From positions 1-29,560 of the forward strand of contig CAYLZE010000065.1 in assembly GCA_964388035.1 (NCBI GenBank): 29,560 nucleotides of DNA, given 5' to 3'. This document shows positions 20,214 to 28,306 of this stretch, in pieces. The stretch's first letter is position 1. The number at the start of each line of letters is the position of its first letter. This DNA comes from an uncultured archaeon (GTDB taxonomy: Archaea > Asgardarchaeota > Lokiarchaeia > Sigyniarchaeales > SOKP01). The position numbers and the translations under genes were made by a program. A model generated the notes under the pieces. The model was not told the DNA's origin and did no database searches. It saw nothing but the letters and a program-made list of their open reading frames with translations.

Positions 20214-21767
20214 ATGATTAATCATAATGATAACACAAGCGAAATTTCTTCATATCCCGTAATTGTCATTGGTGCTGGTCTCGGTGGCATAGGGGCAGCA
20301 TGTCAACTCGCGTTATCGGGCGAGAAGGTTTTATTGCTTGAAAAGCATAATGTCCCGGGAGGTTTTGCTACTTCTTTTGTAAGGGGAAGATTTGAGTTTG
20401 AAGGCGCTTTACATGAACTAAGTGATATTGGAAGAAATGAAGGAAATAAAGGGACACTAAGAAGGTTCTTGGAAAGAATTGGTGTTTTTCCAAATAAAAT
20501 CGAATTTAAGCAAGTTCCGGAATTCTATAGAAGTATATTTAGTGATGGATTTGATGTAACAATGCCGATTACCTTCGATGGGTATCAAGACAAGCTAATA
20601 GAACTATTTCCTCACGAGGAAAAGGGAATTGAGGGATTCATGGAAATGCTAAAAGCTGTTTTGGCAGGGATCGAATTTGTTGCTTCCCAGGGGGGAAAAT
20701 TCAATCCCATGGAAGTGTTAAAAAAACATCCCTGGCTTCCCAGAGTATCCGGGCTCACGCTATCAGAAGTATATGAGAAATTTTTCACCGATCCTAAATT
20801 AATAGCTTTAATTTCCCAACTATGGGGGTATATTGGACTACCTCCTGACAGGGTAAATGCCTATGCATATCTCGCCATGTTAGTATTTTACTTAAATTGG
20901 GGGGCAGCTTATCCTATTGGACGCTCTCATGCATTCACAAGTGCGATGATTGATGCTTTTAAAGAGCTTGGTGGCGAAGTTAGGTTTAATGCCTTGGTAG
21001 ATCAGATACTCGTTGAAGATGGTAAAGTTGCCGGGGTAGAGCTTCTTAACGGCGATATTTATAAATCAAAAGCAGTCATTTCTAATGTAAATCCTATTTG
21101 TACCGCCATGAAAATGTTTCCGGAAAAGGTAATTTCTGATGATTATAAAAAATCAATTTATGCCCCGGAGATAGGTCCATCAGGGCTTTCTGTCTATTTA
21201 GGATTAAATGCCTCTCATCAAGAATTAGGCTTTACCGTCCATGAAACCTTTATCAATGATACATACGACATGAACCTTGGATTTAAGGGATTCACTAATT
21301 TAGAACCTCCAAAATACATGGTTGCTGCTTGTTATAATCATATCTATGATGAGATTACTCCTCCCGGTACCACCCAAATCGTTCTTACCTCCCTTCAATT
21401 CGGGAAATTGTGGCAAAATGTAGCACCCGATCAATATTTTCATTTAAAAGATTATTTAGGTGATAAGATGGTAGAGCTGGCGGAAAGAACCATATGTCCC
21501 AATATTCGAGATTATATTGAAGTCGCTGAAGTTGCCACCCCCCTCACTTATTATCGGTACTCTAAAAATATCGAAGGTGCTATTTACGGATACACCCAAG
21601 ACATATTAAACGGTCCCTTGCTTCGCTTAAAAAGCAGGGGTGCGATACCGGGGCATTATCAAGTAGGGGCTTGGACAAACGTGGGCGGAGGATTCTCAAC
21701 CAGTATTTTAGGCGGAAGAATCGCCGCGGGCATGTATTTAAAAGATAAAAAAACGGGGAGGGTATAA
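20214..21767 (+). CDS. Phytoene dehydrogenase-like FAD oxidoreductase (COG1233; CrtI/retinol saturase-like)
   Basis: Contains VIVIGAGLGG, LEKHNVPGG, FEFEGALH, ATPLTYYRY...GAIYG and GGGF motifs. Confidence 0.9.
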   Translation: MINHNDNTSEISSYPVIVIGAGLGGIGAACQLALSGEKVLLLEKHNVPGGFATSFVRGRFEFEGALHELSDIGRNEGNKGTLRRFLERIGVFPNKIEFKQVPEFYRSIFSDGFDVTMPITFDGYQDKLIELFPHEEKGIEGFMEMLKAVLAGIEFVASQGGKFNPMEVLKKHPWLPRVSGLTLSEVYEKFFTDPKLIALISQLWGYIGLPPDRVNAYAYLAMLVFYLNWGAAYPIGRSHAFTSAMIDAFKELGGEVRFNALVDQILVEDGKVAGVELLNGDIYKSKAVISNVNPICTAMKMFPEKVISDDYKKSIYAPEIGPSGLSVYLGLNASHQELGFTVHETFINDTYDMNLGFKGFTNLEPPKYMVAACYNHIYDEITPPGTTQIVLTSLQFGKLWQNVAPDQYFHLKDYLGDKMVELAERTICPNIRDYIEVAEVATPLTYYRYSKNIEGAIYGYTQDILNGPLLRLKSRGAIPGHYQVGAWTNVGGGFSTSILGGRIAAGMYLKDKKTGRV

Positions 21768-22966
21768 TGATGGATGATATAATGAAAGATGTTAAGAAAT
21801 ACCAACAAGCAGAAAAGTTGAAGAAATGGAGGGATGAAGTGCAGTCAATTCCCTGGTATTATGACGGTTTAGAAAGTTTAGCCAGCCGGATACATCCTGT
21901 AAAACAATATTTAAGAGTAACGGATATTTATAAATTGTCTCACGATACCAAACTCTATCGATTTGTTTCCGCGAAGGCGGACCAACCGTTATCCCCTTTT
22001 AGAGCGGGTCAATATATTGGAGTTACCGTGGAAATTAAAGGTGTTCGCACCTCTCGTCCATATTCTCTGGTGTCTTCTCCTAATCAGTTAGCATATTATG
22101 AATTGGGTATTCGAAAGAAAGAGGGGGGATTTGTTAGCCCATATATTTATCAAAACCTTAAAATTGGAGATATCCTAGAAGCAACAGAACCCTTAGGCAA
22201 TCTATATCATAATCCTATCTTTCATGGAAATAACCTTGTATTTATTGCGGGAGGATGTGGCATTACTCCCTTCATATCATTAATGCGAAATATCACAGAG
22301 AAAACCTTGCCATTAAATGTATCCTTGATTTTTGGATGTGTAAGAGAATCTGATATCCTTTTCAGAGAAGAATTGATGGATATGGCTTCCAGAAGAGAAA
22401 ATATTAATGTCAATTTTGTTTTGTCTGAACCTGATGCGGATTGGAAGGGAGATTGCGGATTTATCACCAAAGACATCATTCTAAAAACAATCGGATCAAT
22501 TGAAAAAAAATACTTTTTCGTTGTAGGAAATCGAGCAATGTATGAATTCATTAAACAAGAATTAGCAAATCTAAAGGTTCCAAAGCATCGTGTTAAATTT
22601 GAGGCTTATGGCGTTCCTGATGATATAACTAAAGTACTAGGCTGGCCTCCACATTTAAACTCCGCTCATAAGGTGAAAATAAAAGTCGATTATTTTAAAT
22701 CTGGAAGCAAAACAGAGAAAATTTTCGATGCTCCCTGCACAGAGCCCCTCCTAAATAGCATTGAAAGAGAATTAGGATTGGAATTACGACTTAAAAGTGC
22801 TTGTAGAAGTGGAGAATGTGCATTTTGCAGGACAAAACTGGTATCAGGAAAGGTATTTTTGCCTCCTGACGTTGTTATAAGAGAAAGTGATCAAAAATAT
22901 GGATTCATCCATCCCTGCGTTTCTTATCCCATTTCTGATATACGCGTTGATCTTACTACCATTTAA
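21767..22966 (+). CDS. FAD/NAD(P)-binding oxidoreductase with C-terminal [2Fe-2S] domain (PaaE/KshB-like)
   Basis: Contains FRAGQY, RPYSLVS, GFVS, IAGGCGITP and CRSGECAFC...C motifs. Its start overlaps the upstream stop (TAATG), with GGGAGGG upstream. Confidence 0.9.
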   Translation: MMDDIMKDVKKYQQAEKLKKWRDEVQSIPWYYDGLESLASRIHPVKQYLRVTDIYKLSHDTKLYRFVSAKADQPLSPFRAGQYIGVTVEIKGVRTSRPYSLVSSPNQLAYYELGIRKKEGGFVSPYIYQNLKIGDILEATEPLGNLYHNPIFHGNNLVFIAGGCGITPFISLMRNITEKTLPLNVSLIFGCVRESDILFREELMDMASRRENINVNFVLSEPDADWKGDCGFITKDIILKTIGSIEKKYFFVVGNRAMYEFIKQELANLKVPKHRVKFEAYGVPDDITKVLGWPPHLNSAHKVKIKVDYFKSGSKTEKIFDAPCTEPLLNSIERELGLELRLKSACRSGECAFCRTKLVSGKVFLPPDVVIRESDQKYGFIHPCVSYPISDIRVDLTTI

Positions 22967-24989: not shown

Positions 24990-26147
24990 ATGAAGTCAAA
25001 TTTAGGTAAGGTAGCGATTGTTGGCGTTGCACAGACAAAATACGAGGAGAACAAAATTGATCAAACCATGATGGAAATGGTATTCGAAGCGGTTAAGAAA
25101 CTATTCGATGGTTTAGGGATTTCGAATGATGACGTGGGAAGCGTGATCACCAGCTCAAATGACTTTAATGACGGAAGAACCATCGCAAACATGGCAATTC
25201 AAGATGCTGTTGGCTCGGTAAGAAAATCCGAATCAAGAGTTTCTGGAGATGGCGCCTTTGCTTATGTTTATGCTGCAATGAGGGTATTATCAGAAGAGTA
25301 TGATACCGTGATGGTGGTATCCCATGATAAATGCTCTGAAGGAGATCAGTATCTCATCAATAACTCGATTTTCGACCCTTACTTTCAAAGACATCTCGGG
25401 TTAGACCAAATATCCTCTGCGGGATTAATGGCTAACATGTACATGAAGAAATATGGAACCAGCATTGAACAAGCAGCGAAAGTTGTCGTGAAAAATCGGA
25501 AAAATGCGTTAAATAATCCAAATGCGCATTTACAAAAACAAGTTTCGCTAGACGAGGTATTGAATTCTCCGATGCTTGCTTACCCCTTAAAAAAATTAGA
25601 TTTTCCCCCATTTTCTGATGGAGCAGTAGTAATGCTATTAGCGAACGAGAAGAAAGCAAAAGAGCTAACGGATACGCCTGTATGGCTCAAAGGATATGCA
25701 AGTTGTACCGATGCTTATTATCTTGGGCATAGAACGATGACTGATTTGATTGGATTAGAGTTAGCTGCCAAGGAAGCTTATAAAATGGCAGGGATTACAG
25801 ATCCAGTAAAAGAAATCGATGTCGCAGAAGTCTATGACGCATTTTCTGTTCATGAATTAATGAGTTATGAGGCACTAGGGTTTTGCAATAAAGGAGAGGG
25901 AGGAAAATTCATGGATAGCGGAGCGACTCAAATGAATGGTGCGATTCCCGTGAATCCTTCTGGAGGTGTCTTATCCAGCAATCCCACCATGGCAAATGGA
26001 TTAATAAGGGTTGCAGAAATTGCATTGCAATTAATGGAAAAAGCAGGCAAGCGCCAAATTCCTGATGCAAAAATAGGCTTAGCCAATGGAATGAATGGAA
26101 TTTGTTCACAAGGAAATTGTGTATTGATCTTTGGAGGTGAAAATTAA
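24990..26147 (+). CDS. Thiolase-fold (SCP-x/Ltp4-like) protein, subunit 1
   Basis: Contains VAIVGVAQT, NRKNALNNPNA, SDGAVVMLL, IDVAEVYDAF and VNPSGG motifs. It lacks the canonical nucleophile Cys. Confidence 0.9.
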   Translation: MKSNLGKVAIVGVAQTKYEENKIDQTMMEMVFEAVKKLFDGLGISNDDVGSVITSSNDFNDGRTIANMAIQDAVGSVRKSESRVSGDGAFAYVYAAMRVLSEEYDTVMVVSHDKCSEGDQYLINNSIFDPYFQRHLGLDQISSAGLMANMYMKKYGTSIEQAAKVVVKNRKNALNNPNAHLQKQVSLDEVLNSPMLAYPLKKLDFPPFSDGAVVMLLANEKKAKELTDTPVWLKGYASCTDAYYLGHRTMTDLIGLELAAKEAYKMAGITDPVKEIDVAEVYDAFSVHELMSYEALGFCNKGEGGKFMDSGATQMNGAIPVNPSGGVLSSNPTMANGLIRVAEIALQLMEKAGKRQIPDAKIGLANGMNGICSQGNCVLIFGGEN

Positions 26148-26148
26148 A

Positions 26149-27351
26149 ATGCCGAAAAATGATGTGGCCGTAGTTGGAATCGGTCAGACAAAATTTAGAA
26201 GCAAGCGAAGAGATGTTAACATTCCTGAAATGATCTATGAAGCCGTTAAAATGGCTTTGGATGACGCTCAAATGGAACCAAAGGATATTGACGCCATCCT
26301 AATTGGCAATATATAATGTCATATCGATATTAAATGCTAAATGGATCATTTTGAAGGAATCAACTTTTCTGAGATGTGGTGTGGCATTGATGCAGCTCCT
26401 GGTTATTTAAAACCGGTAGTAAAAATTGCAACGGGAGGTACCACGGGCTCTTCCTTAGCTATATCCGGATATTTCAATGTAGCTTCAGGAATTTATAAAA
26501 ACGTCTTAGTCGTAGGATGGGAAAAACTAAATGAAGGAGGAGCCACTACGGGAATCATTACAGCATTTGATCCCGTATGGGAAAGACCTTCTCTAGCTGG
26601 GGCGCTCGGACCCTTGGCTTTAATGGCAAATATCTATGCCGATAAATACGGCATTACCTCTGAACAAGCGGCCAAAGTCACGGTGAAGAACCGGAGCAAT
26701 GCTGCGAATAACCCTTTTGCACATTTACAAATGCCCAATATCACCTTAGATTACGTGTTGAGCTCTCAAATGATTTCTTACCCCTTGCGCATTCACGACT
26801 GTTGTCCTCAAAGTGAAGGTGCTTGCGCGCTCATTTATGCCAATCAAGATGAGGCGAAAAAAATCACGGATAATCCCGCGTGGTTCAAGTCTGTAGCAAC
26901 GGCTCATTACTACACCTTTGGTACAGACGATATCATGTACGATTTGCCCACGGCTACCATTGCTTCCAAGAAAGCTTACAAAAAAGCGGGTATTCACGAT
27001 CCTGTTAAGGATTTAGATGTCGCAGAAATTTACGAACCAACTTCTTGGGCAGAACTGAGCTGGACGGAGGCTTTGGGATTTGCTAAACCGGGCGGTGGAG
27101 GTAAATTGTTAGATGAGGGAATCACGCAGATGAGCGGTGAATTACCAGTTAATCCTTCGGGGGGGGTATTGAGCACCAATCCCATCGGGGCAACCGCACT
27201 TGTTCGCGTGGCAGAAGCCGCCATCCAAGTTATGGGGCGAGGAGGGAAAAGACAAGTCCCGGATGTTGAAACCGCTCTGGCAATGGGATTTGGAGGCAGT
27301 CTTTGGACTGAATTAATGATCTTAGGTAAAGATCCAAAACCAGTGAGGTGA
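26149..27351 (+). CDS. Thiolase-fold (SCP-x/Ltp3-like) protein, subunit 2; join(26149..26310,26341..27351), 390 aa, interrupted by a 30-nt insert
   Basis: SD GGAGGTGA at 26133-26140 precedes the ATG at 26149. The N-part (VAVVGIGQTKF...DIDAILIGN) and C-part (MDHFEGIN...LDVAEIYE...VNPSGG) are in the same frame and separated by 30 nt with two TAA stops. The joined length is close to the 385-aa neighbour. Confidence 0.85.
26311..26340 (+). other. Candidate archaeal bulge-helix-bulge/loop mRNA intron (30 nt)
   Basis: Insert ATATAATGTCATATCGATATTAAATGCTAA. The central 4-bp helix is GGCA(26305-08)/TGCT(26335-38), with a 3-nt bulge AT^A, an internal hairpin TAATGTC/GATATTA, a 3' site AA^A and an outer helix ATCC/GGAT. 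Cutting after the second bulge nt at both sites removes exactly these 30 nt. Confidence 0.7.
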
Positions 27352-27356
27352 TTTTA

Positions 27357-27842
27357 ATGGGTAAAAAGAAAAATGAGGAAAAAGTTTTTGAAATTAAATG
27401 GAAAACCGATTTACCATACAAATGGGCAAAGGGCAAGTTAACCGTCAAGTTTTTTGAAGAATTGAAGAAAAACAAGAAAATTTTGGGAAGCAAGTGTCCA
27501 AAATGTGGAAAAGTTCACATGCCTCCGAGAGGGGTGTGTGCGGAGTGCTTGGTACAAATGACGGTCGACGACATGGTAGAATTACCTCCAAAAGGAACGT
27601 TAGAAGGTTTTACGGTTGTCAATTATCCGTTCACGGATCCAAATACTGGGGGAATGCGTCCCTTTCCCTACGGGTATGCCATATTCAAATTAGACGGGGC
27701 GAATACTTACATGATGCATTTTGTCAATGAAACCGATCCTAGTAAGTATAAAATAGGACAGCGCGTGGAAGCCGTTTTTAAAGAAAAACGGGAAGGGAAT
27801 CTAGGTGATATTCCTTATTTTAAATTAATCGAGGAGAAATGA
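27357..27842 (+). CDS. DUF35 Zn-ribbon/OB-fold protein (ChsH2-like, thiolase-associated)
   Basis: Contains ILGSKCPKCGKVHMPPRGVCAEC and IGQRVEAVF motifs. SD GAGGTGA precedes the ATG at 27357. Confidence 0.9.
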   Translation: MGKKKNEEKVFEIKWKTDLPYKWAKGKLTVKFFEELKKNKKILGSKCPKCGKVHMPPRGVCAECLVQMTVDDMVELPPKGTLEGFTVVNYPFTDPNTGGMRPFPYGYAIFKLDGANTYMMHFVNETDPSKYKIGQRVEAVFKEKREGNLGDIPYFKLIEEK

Positions 27843-28306
27843 ATGAGGTGGAAAAAATGAGCCAAGACATGGAAAAGAAAATTTTTAGAGGAAGGATTAA
27901 AGTCCCTTATAAACACACAGCGGGAGCTTACGTGGAAAAATTCATAACAGAGATTGCCAAAAATAACAAAATTTGGGGAGTAAAATGTCCAAAATGCCAA
28001 AAAGTCTACGTTCCTCCCAAAATGATATGTTTCAAATGCTTTGAAAAAATGGAGGAATGGGTTGAAATTGGAAATCAAGGAACCGTGGAAGGATTTACCG
28101 TGGTAACCCATTCCACTCCCGTGATGCCTTTAGAACCCCCATTTGCTTATGGAATCATAAAGCTTGATGGTGCGGACACCAATTTCGTTCACGTGATCAA
28201 AGAGGGAGATCCCAGCAAAATTGAAGTAGGCATGAGAGTTGAAGCGGTATTTAAAGAACAACCAAGGAAAAGAATCTTGGATATTGAATATTTCAAACCT
28301 ATTTAA
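27839..28306 (+). CDS. DUF35 Zn-ribbon/OB-fold protein (second copy)
   Basis: Contains IWGVKCPKCQKVYVPPKMICFKC and VGMRVEAVF motifs. ATGA overlap with the upstream gene. Confidence 0.9.
   Translation: MNEVEKMSQDMEKKIFRGRIKVPYKHTAGAYVEKFITEIAKNNKIWGVKCPKCQKVYVPPKMICFKCFEKMEEWVEIGNQGTVEGFTVVTHSTPVMPLEPPFAYGIIKLDGADTNFVHVIKEGDPSKIEVGMRVEAVFKEQPRKRILDIEYFKPI

Follow-up and report, generated by a model that had tools for sequence, protein, structure and literature searches.

The stretch of DNA analyzed here, referred to as the window, comprises 29,560 nucleotides (nt) of contig CAYLZE010000065.1 and carries on its forward strand a thiolase-fold gene (26149-27351) that is broken by exactly 30 nt (26311-26340) containing two in-frame TAA codons. 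The comparative evidence presented below suggests that this insert is very probably an archaeal endonuclease-type intron, of the relaxed HBh' class within the bulge-helix-bulge (BHB) family, residing in the thiolase-fold pre-mRNA of a Promethearchaeia (Lokiarchaeia, Asgard) archaeon. The insert reads ATA TAA TGT CAT ATC GAT ATT AAA TGC TAA. The exon reading ends in ...AILIGN before it and resumes after it with ATG GAT CAT (MDHFEG...), in a frame that is kept to the stop codon at 27349-27351. Deletion of the insert leaves a frame of 390 codons with zero other stops. Our reading of the sequence thereby agrees with a first-pass annotation of the window, generated by a model from the letters alone, which had described an exact 30-nt break with two in-frame TAA codons and intact flanks in the same frame. 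The interrupted gene is composed of the following parts.

26149-26310, forward strand: 5' exon (54 codons, MPKND...AILIGN), with a weak Pfam match to Thiolase_N positions 1-52 (E = 2e-4, below the cut-off) and collinear with the N-termini of intact orthologues
26311-26340, forward strand: 30-nt intervening sequence, candidate mini-intron of the type removed by the tRNA-splicing endonuclease EndA, with in-frame TAA codons at 26314-26316 and 26338-26340; site and length are common to 18 copies
26341-27351, forward strand: 3' exon (336 codons plus stop, MDHFEG...), matching Thiolase_C_1 (PF22691, E = 8e-30)

Presence and precise absence of the insert in related genomes

An orthologue of the thiolase-fold gene was identified at 82-91% identity in 54 of the 135 genomes of the same Promethearchaeota family, and the junction was read in 41 of these orthologues, 31 without and 10 with the insert. 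All 31 uninterrupted orthologues read ...IGN^MDHFEG... (the caret marks the junction) contiguously and with zero extra residues, which is the outcome that the first-pass annotation had anticipated for an intron. The 10 interrupted orthologues (in G000, the genome of this window, and in G013, G003, G012, G122, G145, G061, G110, G148 and G051) come from seven genera, and in each of them exactly the same codon boundary holds a 30-nt insert. Eight further copies were retrieved by a pattern search from unrelated metagenome contigs of different studies, and the insert also occurs in 7 GenBank records of metagenome-assembled genomes (MAGs) of the Promethearchaeota/Promethearchaeia. The contigs bearing the insert thus belong to Promethearchaeota/Promethearchaeia MAGs, in line with the Asgard host guessed at the outset. 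The 10 genome copies and the 8 metagenome copies form the comparison set of 18 used for the RNA structure.

Because the insert is seen in 10 genome assemblies and in 8 metagenome contigs of different studies, that is, in 18 independent assemblies, it is real DNA and not an assembly error, an objection that the first-pass annotation had raised against itself. Stop-codon read-through or recoding, for which an insert length that stays in frame (30 nt) would be suitable, faces several difficulties. The insert-free orthologues lack the corresponding 10 residues, TAA ends neighbouring genes, three different stop codons are found at the two stop positions of the insert, and its substitution pattern is not codon-like. 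Recoding and read-through were rejected on the last two counts, and an explanation by read-through, recoding or assembly artefact is scarcely credible.

Selection on the host gene and on the insert

With the insert removed, all 10 genome copies encode 388-392 codons with no other stop. Between insert-bearing copies the nonsynonymous divergence (dN) amounts to 0.03-0.18 while synonymous sites are saturated, which corresponds to a ratio of nonsynonymous to synonymous divergence (dN/dS) of about 0.02-0.1; judged by these values, purifying selection on the host gene is strong. The identity between insert copies averages 80%, as compared to 34% at the four-fold degenerate third positions within these genes and to a random expectation of 30%. 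Variable columns are distributed over the codon phases as 8/6/4 in the insert versus 4/0/15 in the flanking exons. The stops of the insert vary as well, being TAA, TGA or TAG, and one copy has a single stop, with CAA replacing the second. These patterns are evidence for a constrained RNA element, rather than codons, within a working gene.

A different interpretation is that the gene is split or dead, the insert being a tolerated lesion that yields pieces of 55 and 336 residues, the latter starting at ATG 26341, or nothing useful. This ATG could act as a start, and gene callers would report the 336-residue product. The Met encoded at 26341 is, however, conserved inside intact orthologues too, and the break falls within the Thiolase_N domain, at profile position ~52 of 260. 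The nearest solved structures to the gene product are the acyl-CoA acyltransferase 4yzo and SCP2-type thiolases, and residue 30 of the 3' exon aligns to residue ~74-77 of solved thiolase-fold proteins, which have 373-392 residues. This alignment leaves room for the 54-residue exon and none for ten more residues, and therefore places the break inside the domain. In addition, both halves are intact in eighteen lineages with the low dN/dS given above, and conservation of the insert, which covaries as RNA, far exceeds that of neutral sites. A true nonsense lesion provides a contrast: in a paralogue of this gene in genome G012, CAA has changed to TAA with no insert. A split or dead gene is accordingly very unlikely.

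RNA structure and predicted cut sites

The RNA elements discussed in this section are listed below. All of the pairings claimed in the first-pass annotation exist in the sequence.

26305-26308, forward strand: exon strand GGCA of the central helix H, covering the Gly codon GGC; pairs with 26335-26338
26335-26338, forward strand: intron strand UGCU of the central helix H; pairs with 26305-26308
26309-26311, forward strand: 5' three-nt bulge A-U^A, with a predicted cut after 26310; exactly these three columns are unpaired in the RNAalifold consensus
26312-26320 with 26326-26334, forward strand: inner intron helix h', made of a U26312-A26334 pair, an A26313.A26333 mismatch and UAAUGUC (26314-26320) paired with GAUAUUA (26326-26332), around a 5-nt loop (26321-26325)
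26339-26342, forward strand: 3' cut-site region A-A^A-U, with a predicted cut after 26340, within the 5x4 internal loop (the relaxed side) of the RNAalifold consensus
26296-26299 with 26343-26346, forward strand: proposed outer exon helix AUCC/GGAU, present here, not conserved

Unguided folding of the 10 genome copies with RNAalifold yielded a 4-bp helix in which exon GGYA pairs with URCU of the insert, followed by three unpaired bases and a 9-bp hairpin with a 5-nt loop, with the 3' junction sitting in a 5x4 internal loop. Across the 18 copies, 97.2% of the cells of the central helix H and 98.8% of those of the hairpin h' are paired. Compensatory changes affect four pairs, one in the central helix, whose third pair is C-G, U-A or U.G, and three in the hairpin, where both sides have changed (U-A/C-G; A-U/G-C/U.G/G.U; C-G/U-A). 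The covariation score was reached by 0 of 500 shuffles, and partners slid by 1-3 columns pair at 36-43%. For the structure overall, 95% of cells pair in the 18 copies versus about 40% in slid controls. Where this copy has the A.A mismatch, 16 of the 18 copies form a U-A pair and one forms U.G. On the exon side, the third base of the Gly codon is a pyrimidine in 18 of 18 copies with the insert versus 12 of 31 without it (P = 9e-6, a value that is overstated since the sequences are related), and a Gly codon ending in a pyrimidine is able to pair with the purine opposite it in the central helix.

EndA cuts after the second nt of each bulge flanking a 4-bp helix. Applied to this fold, the rule predicts cuts after 26310 and 26340 that remove exactly 30 nt and give IGN^MDHFEG in a register identical to that of the 31 insert-free orthologues. 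The junction GGC AAT^ATG GAT and the 390-residue protein put forward from the sequence at the outset are hence matched by the insert-free junctions and by a frame without other stops.

Several results speak against an intron of this type and have to be set beside the covariation. Taken as a single sequence, this copy folds no better than chance, with a minimum free energy (MFE) of -12 kcal/mol, z = -1.08 and 29 of 200 shuffles equally stable. In its MFE fold the 3' bulge is buried by a 6-bp UUGGCA/UGCUAA helix, a competing pairing of which the first-pass annotation had itself warned. A strict 3' bulge closed by an exon helix (hBHBh') is lacking in this copy, where U.U occupies the closing position; 9 of the 18 copies, this one not included, could form a strict 3-nt bulge at the 3' site with A-U and U.G closing it. 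In copies of the G013 type, the position corresponding to U26304 is an A, with which a strict bulge is closed. The outer helices, AUCC/GGAU among them, show zero covariation and partial pairing only in the 18 copies: a three-pair version of AUCC/GGAU is 79.6% paired, and its fourth pair (column 13/57) forms in 8 of 18. Finally, in a genome-wide scan for the same geometry, described below, removal of the candidate insert restored an open frame at lax thresholds in 1,511 true-register cases versus 1,599 and 1,630 in frame-shifted decoys, i.e. with no excess. The significance of the fold comes from the comparison across copies and not from the single sequence. Of the fold originally proposed, of BHB or bulge-helix-loop (BHL) type, the central helix and the intron hairpin stand, on the strength of the compensatory changes and of RNAalifold. 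The outer exon helix AUCC/GGAU does not, and both it and a longer outer helix in the RNAalifold output were rejected as supported features because of their partial pairing and lack of covariation. Since the motif retains its central helix, its intron helix and one canonical bulge while the second site lies in a loop, it is assigned to the relaxed HBh' class and not to the strict one.

Short inserts that bear a stop and a hairpin within a working gene are also known from translational bypassing, as in phage T4 gene 60 and in the 'byp' inserts of Magnusiomyces mitochondria. By this mechanism the ribosome would take off near the Asn/Ile codon before the first stop, skip the hairpin and land at ATG 26341. 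A stop directly after the last sense codons, a stable hairpin starting there, and a short, conserved insert in a host gene under selection are all compatible with it. The take-off and landing codons are, however, unmatched, with AAT or ATA/ATT/TTT before the insert versus ATG after it in 18 of 18 copies, and the covarying helix joins exon GGYA to the 3' end of the insert, which is the geometry of an endonuclease site. To our knowledge, an exon-insert helix of this kind has no role in known bypass signals. Other inserts in the same genome, moreover, share this geometry and the AA^ ending. Bypassing is thus a highly improbable account of the insert.

Splicing machinery and proposed pathway

The genome contains two tRNA-intron endonuclease genes (PF01974), at C146:8038-8646 and C33:37574-38176 of G000. 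The product of one, the EndA alpha subunit, matches the Aeropyrum pernix EndA catalytic subunit along its entire length (3p1z_B, E = 1e-35), keeps the Tyr/His/Lys positions, and presents a K-P-R aligned to K44-P45-R46 of the crenarchaeal loop of the A. pernix protein. The second EndA paralogue is without the catalytic His, as expected of a structural beta subunit, and an RtcB ligase is also encoded, on contig C23 (match E = 9e-166). By homology, then, the genome encodes a two-subunit EndA with a loop predicted to permit relaxed motifs, plus RtcB. The crenarchaeal EndA loop confers cleavage of relaxed BHL substrates, as established by mutagenesis (PMC3241643), and Asgard EndA is of the (alpha-beta)2 class with an L1 loop (PMC5829648). 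Two EndA paralogues have been reported in 44 of 60 Asgard genomes, along with very intron-rich tRNA genes (preprint, bioRxiv 10.64898/2026.10.13.758758).

From these elements we infer cleavage and ligation of the message in the cell along the following lines. In the transcript, the 4-bp central helix would form between GGCA at the exon end and UGCU close to the 3' terminus of the insert. The 9-bp hairpin within the insert would stack on this helix and leave the three-base bulge A-U-A, and the 3' junction A-A^A would be held in a loop at the opposite side of the central helix. The two-subunit EndA alpha-beta, with its K-P-R loop, would cleave 3' of the second base on either side, i.e. after 26310 and 26340, and RtcB would join the exons into ...GGC AAT^ATG GAT..., encoding a 390-residue protein collinear with the insert-free orthologues. 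The junction of this predicted product lies in the peptide AILIGNMDHFEGINF. An exact search of metagenome contigs for the gene's own junction, with 0-30 nt between the exons, gave no match, and hence neither a spliced complementary DNA nor a close insert-free strain.

Distribution of the insert on the gene tree

Insert-bearing copies are scattered over a tree built from 39 orthologous proteins. Nine changes are needed to explain this distribution, at least 4 of which are forced by well-supported branches, and the insert-bearing labels cluster no more than shuffled labels do. Forms with and without the insert both occur within single genera. Scattered on the tree though they are, the inserts share homology of site, length and sequence throughout, for which the simplest explanation is an old intron with repeated precise loss, or allele exchange; this orthologue group has probably had the intron for a long time, with either many precise losses or a spread by recombination. 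The inserts of G061 (genus g11, locus L049) and G110 (genus g2, locus L050) are identical while their exons differ at synonymous sites (dS 0.62), and the metagenome locus L054 has the same insert. The identity of these three inserts hints at exchange of the insert region or at very strong constraint.

A scattered presence requiring 9 changes is also what would be expected of a mobile or easily lost element. The insert might accordingly be some other element acting at the RNA level, such as a hairpin cleaved without subsequent religation, a hairpin with a regulatory or attenuator function, or a small mobile insertion that another enzyme takes out, the more so as structure alone is established, and not chemistry. 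On the other hand, the geometry obeys the endonuclease rule on both sides and the frame is restored to the base, and we know of no other archaeal system that removes 30 nt precisely from RNA. The 30-mer, moreover, is present in a single copy in the 5.47-Mb genome with up to 3 mismatches allowed, which rules out a repeated element. An RNA element of another kind retains, on balance, a very slim probability.

Candidate inserts elsewhere in the genome

The genome was scanned for the combination of central helix H and intron helix h', and each site was then evaluated for whether removal of the putative insert restores an open frame. The geometry occurs at 370,440 sites, and a modest excess over decoys was seen at the strictest settings only (e.g. 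10 versus 3 and 3). The scan cannot count introns, because adjacent genes and AT-rich hairpins overwhelm its statistic, and only individual top hits are informative. The scan for split open reading frames with HBh' motifs suggested in the first-pass annotation consequently delivered its top hits, at contigs C47, C50 and C199, and no genome-wide excess over decoys at lax thresholds. The best hits have a common architecture, in which an exon 4-mer pairs with the 3' end of an insert that ends in AA.

C47:27882-27911 of genome G000 (also L069:683-712), reverse strand: 30-nt insert splitting a CinA/MoCF-type gene at ITSGGL^GPTFDD; the 5' exon covers positions 2-66 of 144 of PF00994 (MoCF_biosynth)
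C50:19070-19098 of genome G000, forward strand: 29-nt insert splitting the zinc-alcohol dehydrogenase motif ...VKRCG^ICGSDVH..., with the same geometry
C199:1791-1821 of genome G000 (also L070), forward strand: 31-nt insert splitting the Cys-rich motif ...PICDMCCL^CTFGKCNL..., with the same geometry and ~500 open codons after the insert

The C47 insert has canonical BHB geometry, with a 6-bp outer helix, a 4-bp H and an 8-bp inner helix, and its spliced frame is open for ~290 codons. These three inserts are convincing candidates for further cases of the same architecture.

Genomic context of the interrupted gene

The interrupted gene lies between an uninterrupted paralogue and two genes for likely partner proteins.

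24990-26147, forward strand: upstream thiolase-fold paralogue, uninterrupted, 49% identical to the 3' exon product
27357-27842 and 27839-28306, forward strand: two ChsH2/DUF35-type zinc-ribbon OB-fold genes, partners of the thiolase-fold genes (Pfam PF01796, PF12172)

The weak N-terminal match, the Thiolase_C_1 domain and the adjacent OB-fold genes are the features of an SCP2/Ltp-type thiolase-fold protein with a DUF35 partner. Both thiolase-fold proteins have Gly/Thr-rich stretches (IATGGTTG; RVSGDGA) at the positions of the nucleophilic Cys of thiolases. An enoyl-CoA hydratase gene was identified by Pfam near the thiolase-fold operon, and upstream of both, at 20214-22966, Pfam matches indicate an FAD amine-oxidase/CrtI-like gene directly followed by an FNR-type reductase with a 2Fe-2S domain.

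In G012 (contig C101; locus L011, ~200-1400), the upstream paralogue carries one in-frame TAA, at the position of a CAA in this genome (…AHLHK[stop]VSLDEV…), with zero inserted bases. It was ruled out as another insert, being a plain CAA to TAA nonsense change or a sequencing error.

Relation to known systems and significance

A BHB intron within an archaeal coding sequence has been described for cbf5 in Crenarchaeota (Watanabe 2002, cited in PMC7714728 and PMC12397907; Yoshinari 2006; PMC2738675). Our literature search found such introns documented for cbf5 only, and found nothing on mRNA introns in Asgard archaea. The cbf5 intron resembles the thiolase insert in being a short intron in an archaeal protein-coding sequence, in the frequency of its relaxed motif and in the hetero-oligomeric, broad-specificity EndA of its hosts. 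In both cases, as described for cbf5 (Yokobori 2009, PMC2738675), certain lineages have the intron while close relatives lack it precisely. The two differ in that the present host is an Asgard archaeon (Promethearchaeia) and the gene a CoA-ester metabolism enzyme (PF22691), in that cbf5 splicing was established by experiment whereas splicing of the thiolase-fold gene is inferred from sequence comparison, and in that the thiolase insert, unlike the cbf5 intron, appears to be one of several in its genome. The thiolase insert is of the same mechanism class as the cbf5 intron and not of the same intron family.

Crenarchaeota and Asgard archaea also have non-canonical tRNA introns (HBh'/BHL) that are cut by an (alpha-beta)2 EndA with a CSL/L1 loop (PMC3241643, PMC5829648; bioRxiv 10.64898/2026.10.13.758758). 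These likewise combine a 4-bp central helix with a single canonical 3-nt bulge beside the intron helix, the other site being located in a loop. The thiolase insert falls within the size range of tRNA introns, and the same enzymes are presumed to act on both. The HVO_1309 mRNA of Haloferax volcanii is an additional endonuclease substrate with a BHB site, cleaved in vivo and in vitro (PMC7714728). It shares with the present case the processing of an mRNA by the splicing endonuclease, and differs from it in being presented, in the available text of that source, as a cleaved substrate and not as a frame-restoring intron.

Taken beyond this gene, it appears likely that Promethearchaeia (Lokiarchaeia) routinely splice ordinary protein-coding messages with their tRNA endonuclease and ligase, and that mini-introns of ~30 nt, old, selected for RNA shape and repeatedly lost or gained, reside in many of their metabolic and housekeeping genes. 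The 18 natural variants with compensatory changes would make a good test substrate, with natural insert-free alleles as controls, and the relaxed 3' site of the thiolase insert would probe the specificity of Asgard EndA. If routine splicing holds true, standard gene callers would systematically truncate such genes, and their annotation as truncated genes or pseudogenes would distort metabolic reconstructions of Asgard genomes. mRNA splicing by the tRNA machinery would then be no curiosity of one crenarchaeal gene but a working part of Asgard gene expression. Interrupted protein genes and enzyme-catalysed mRNA splicing would already exist in the closest archaeal relatives of eukaryotes, and this would bear on the origin of interrupted genes and of mRNA splicing before the spliceosome.
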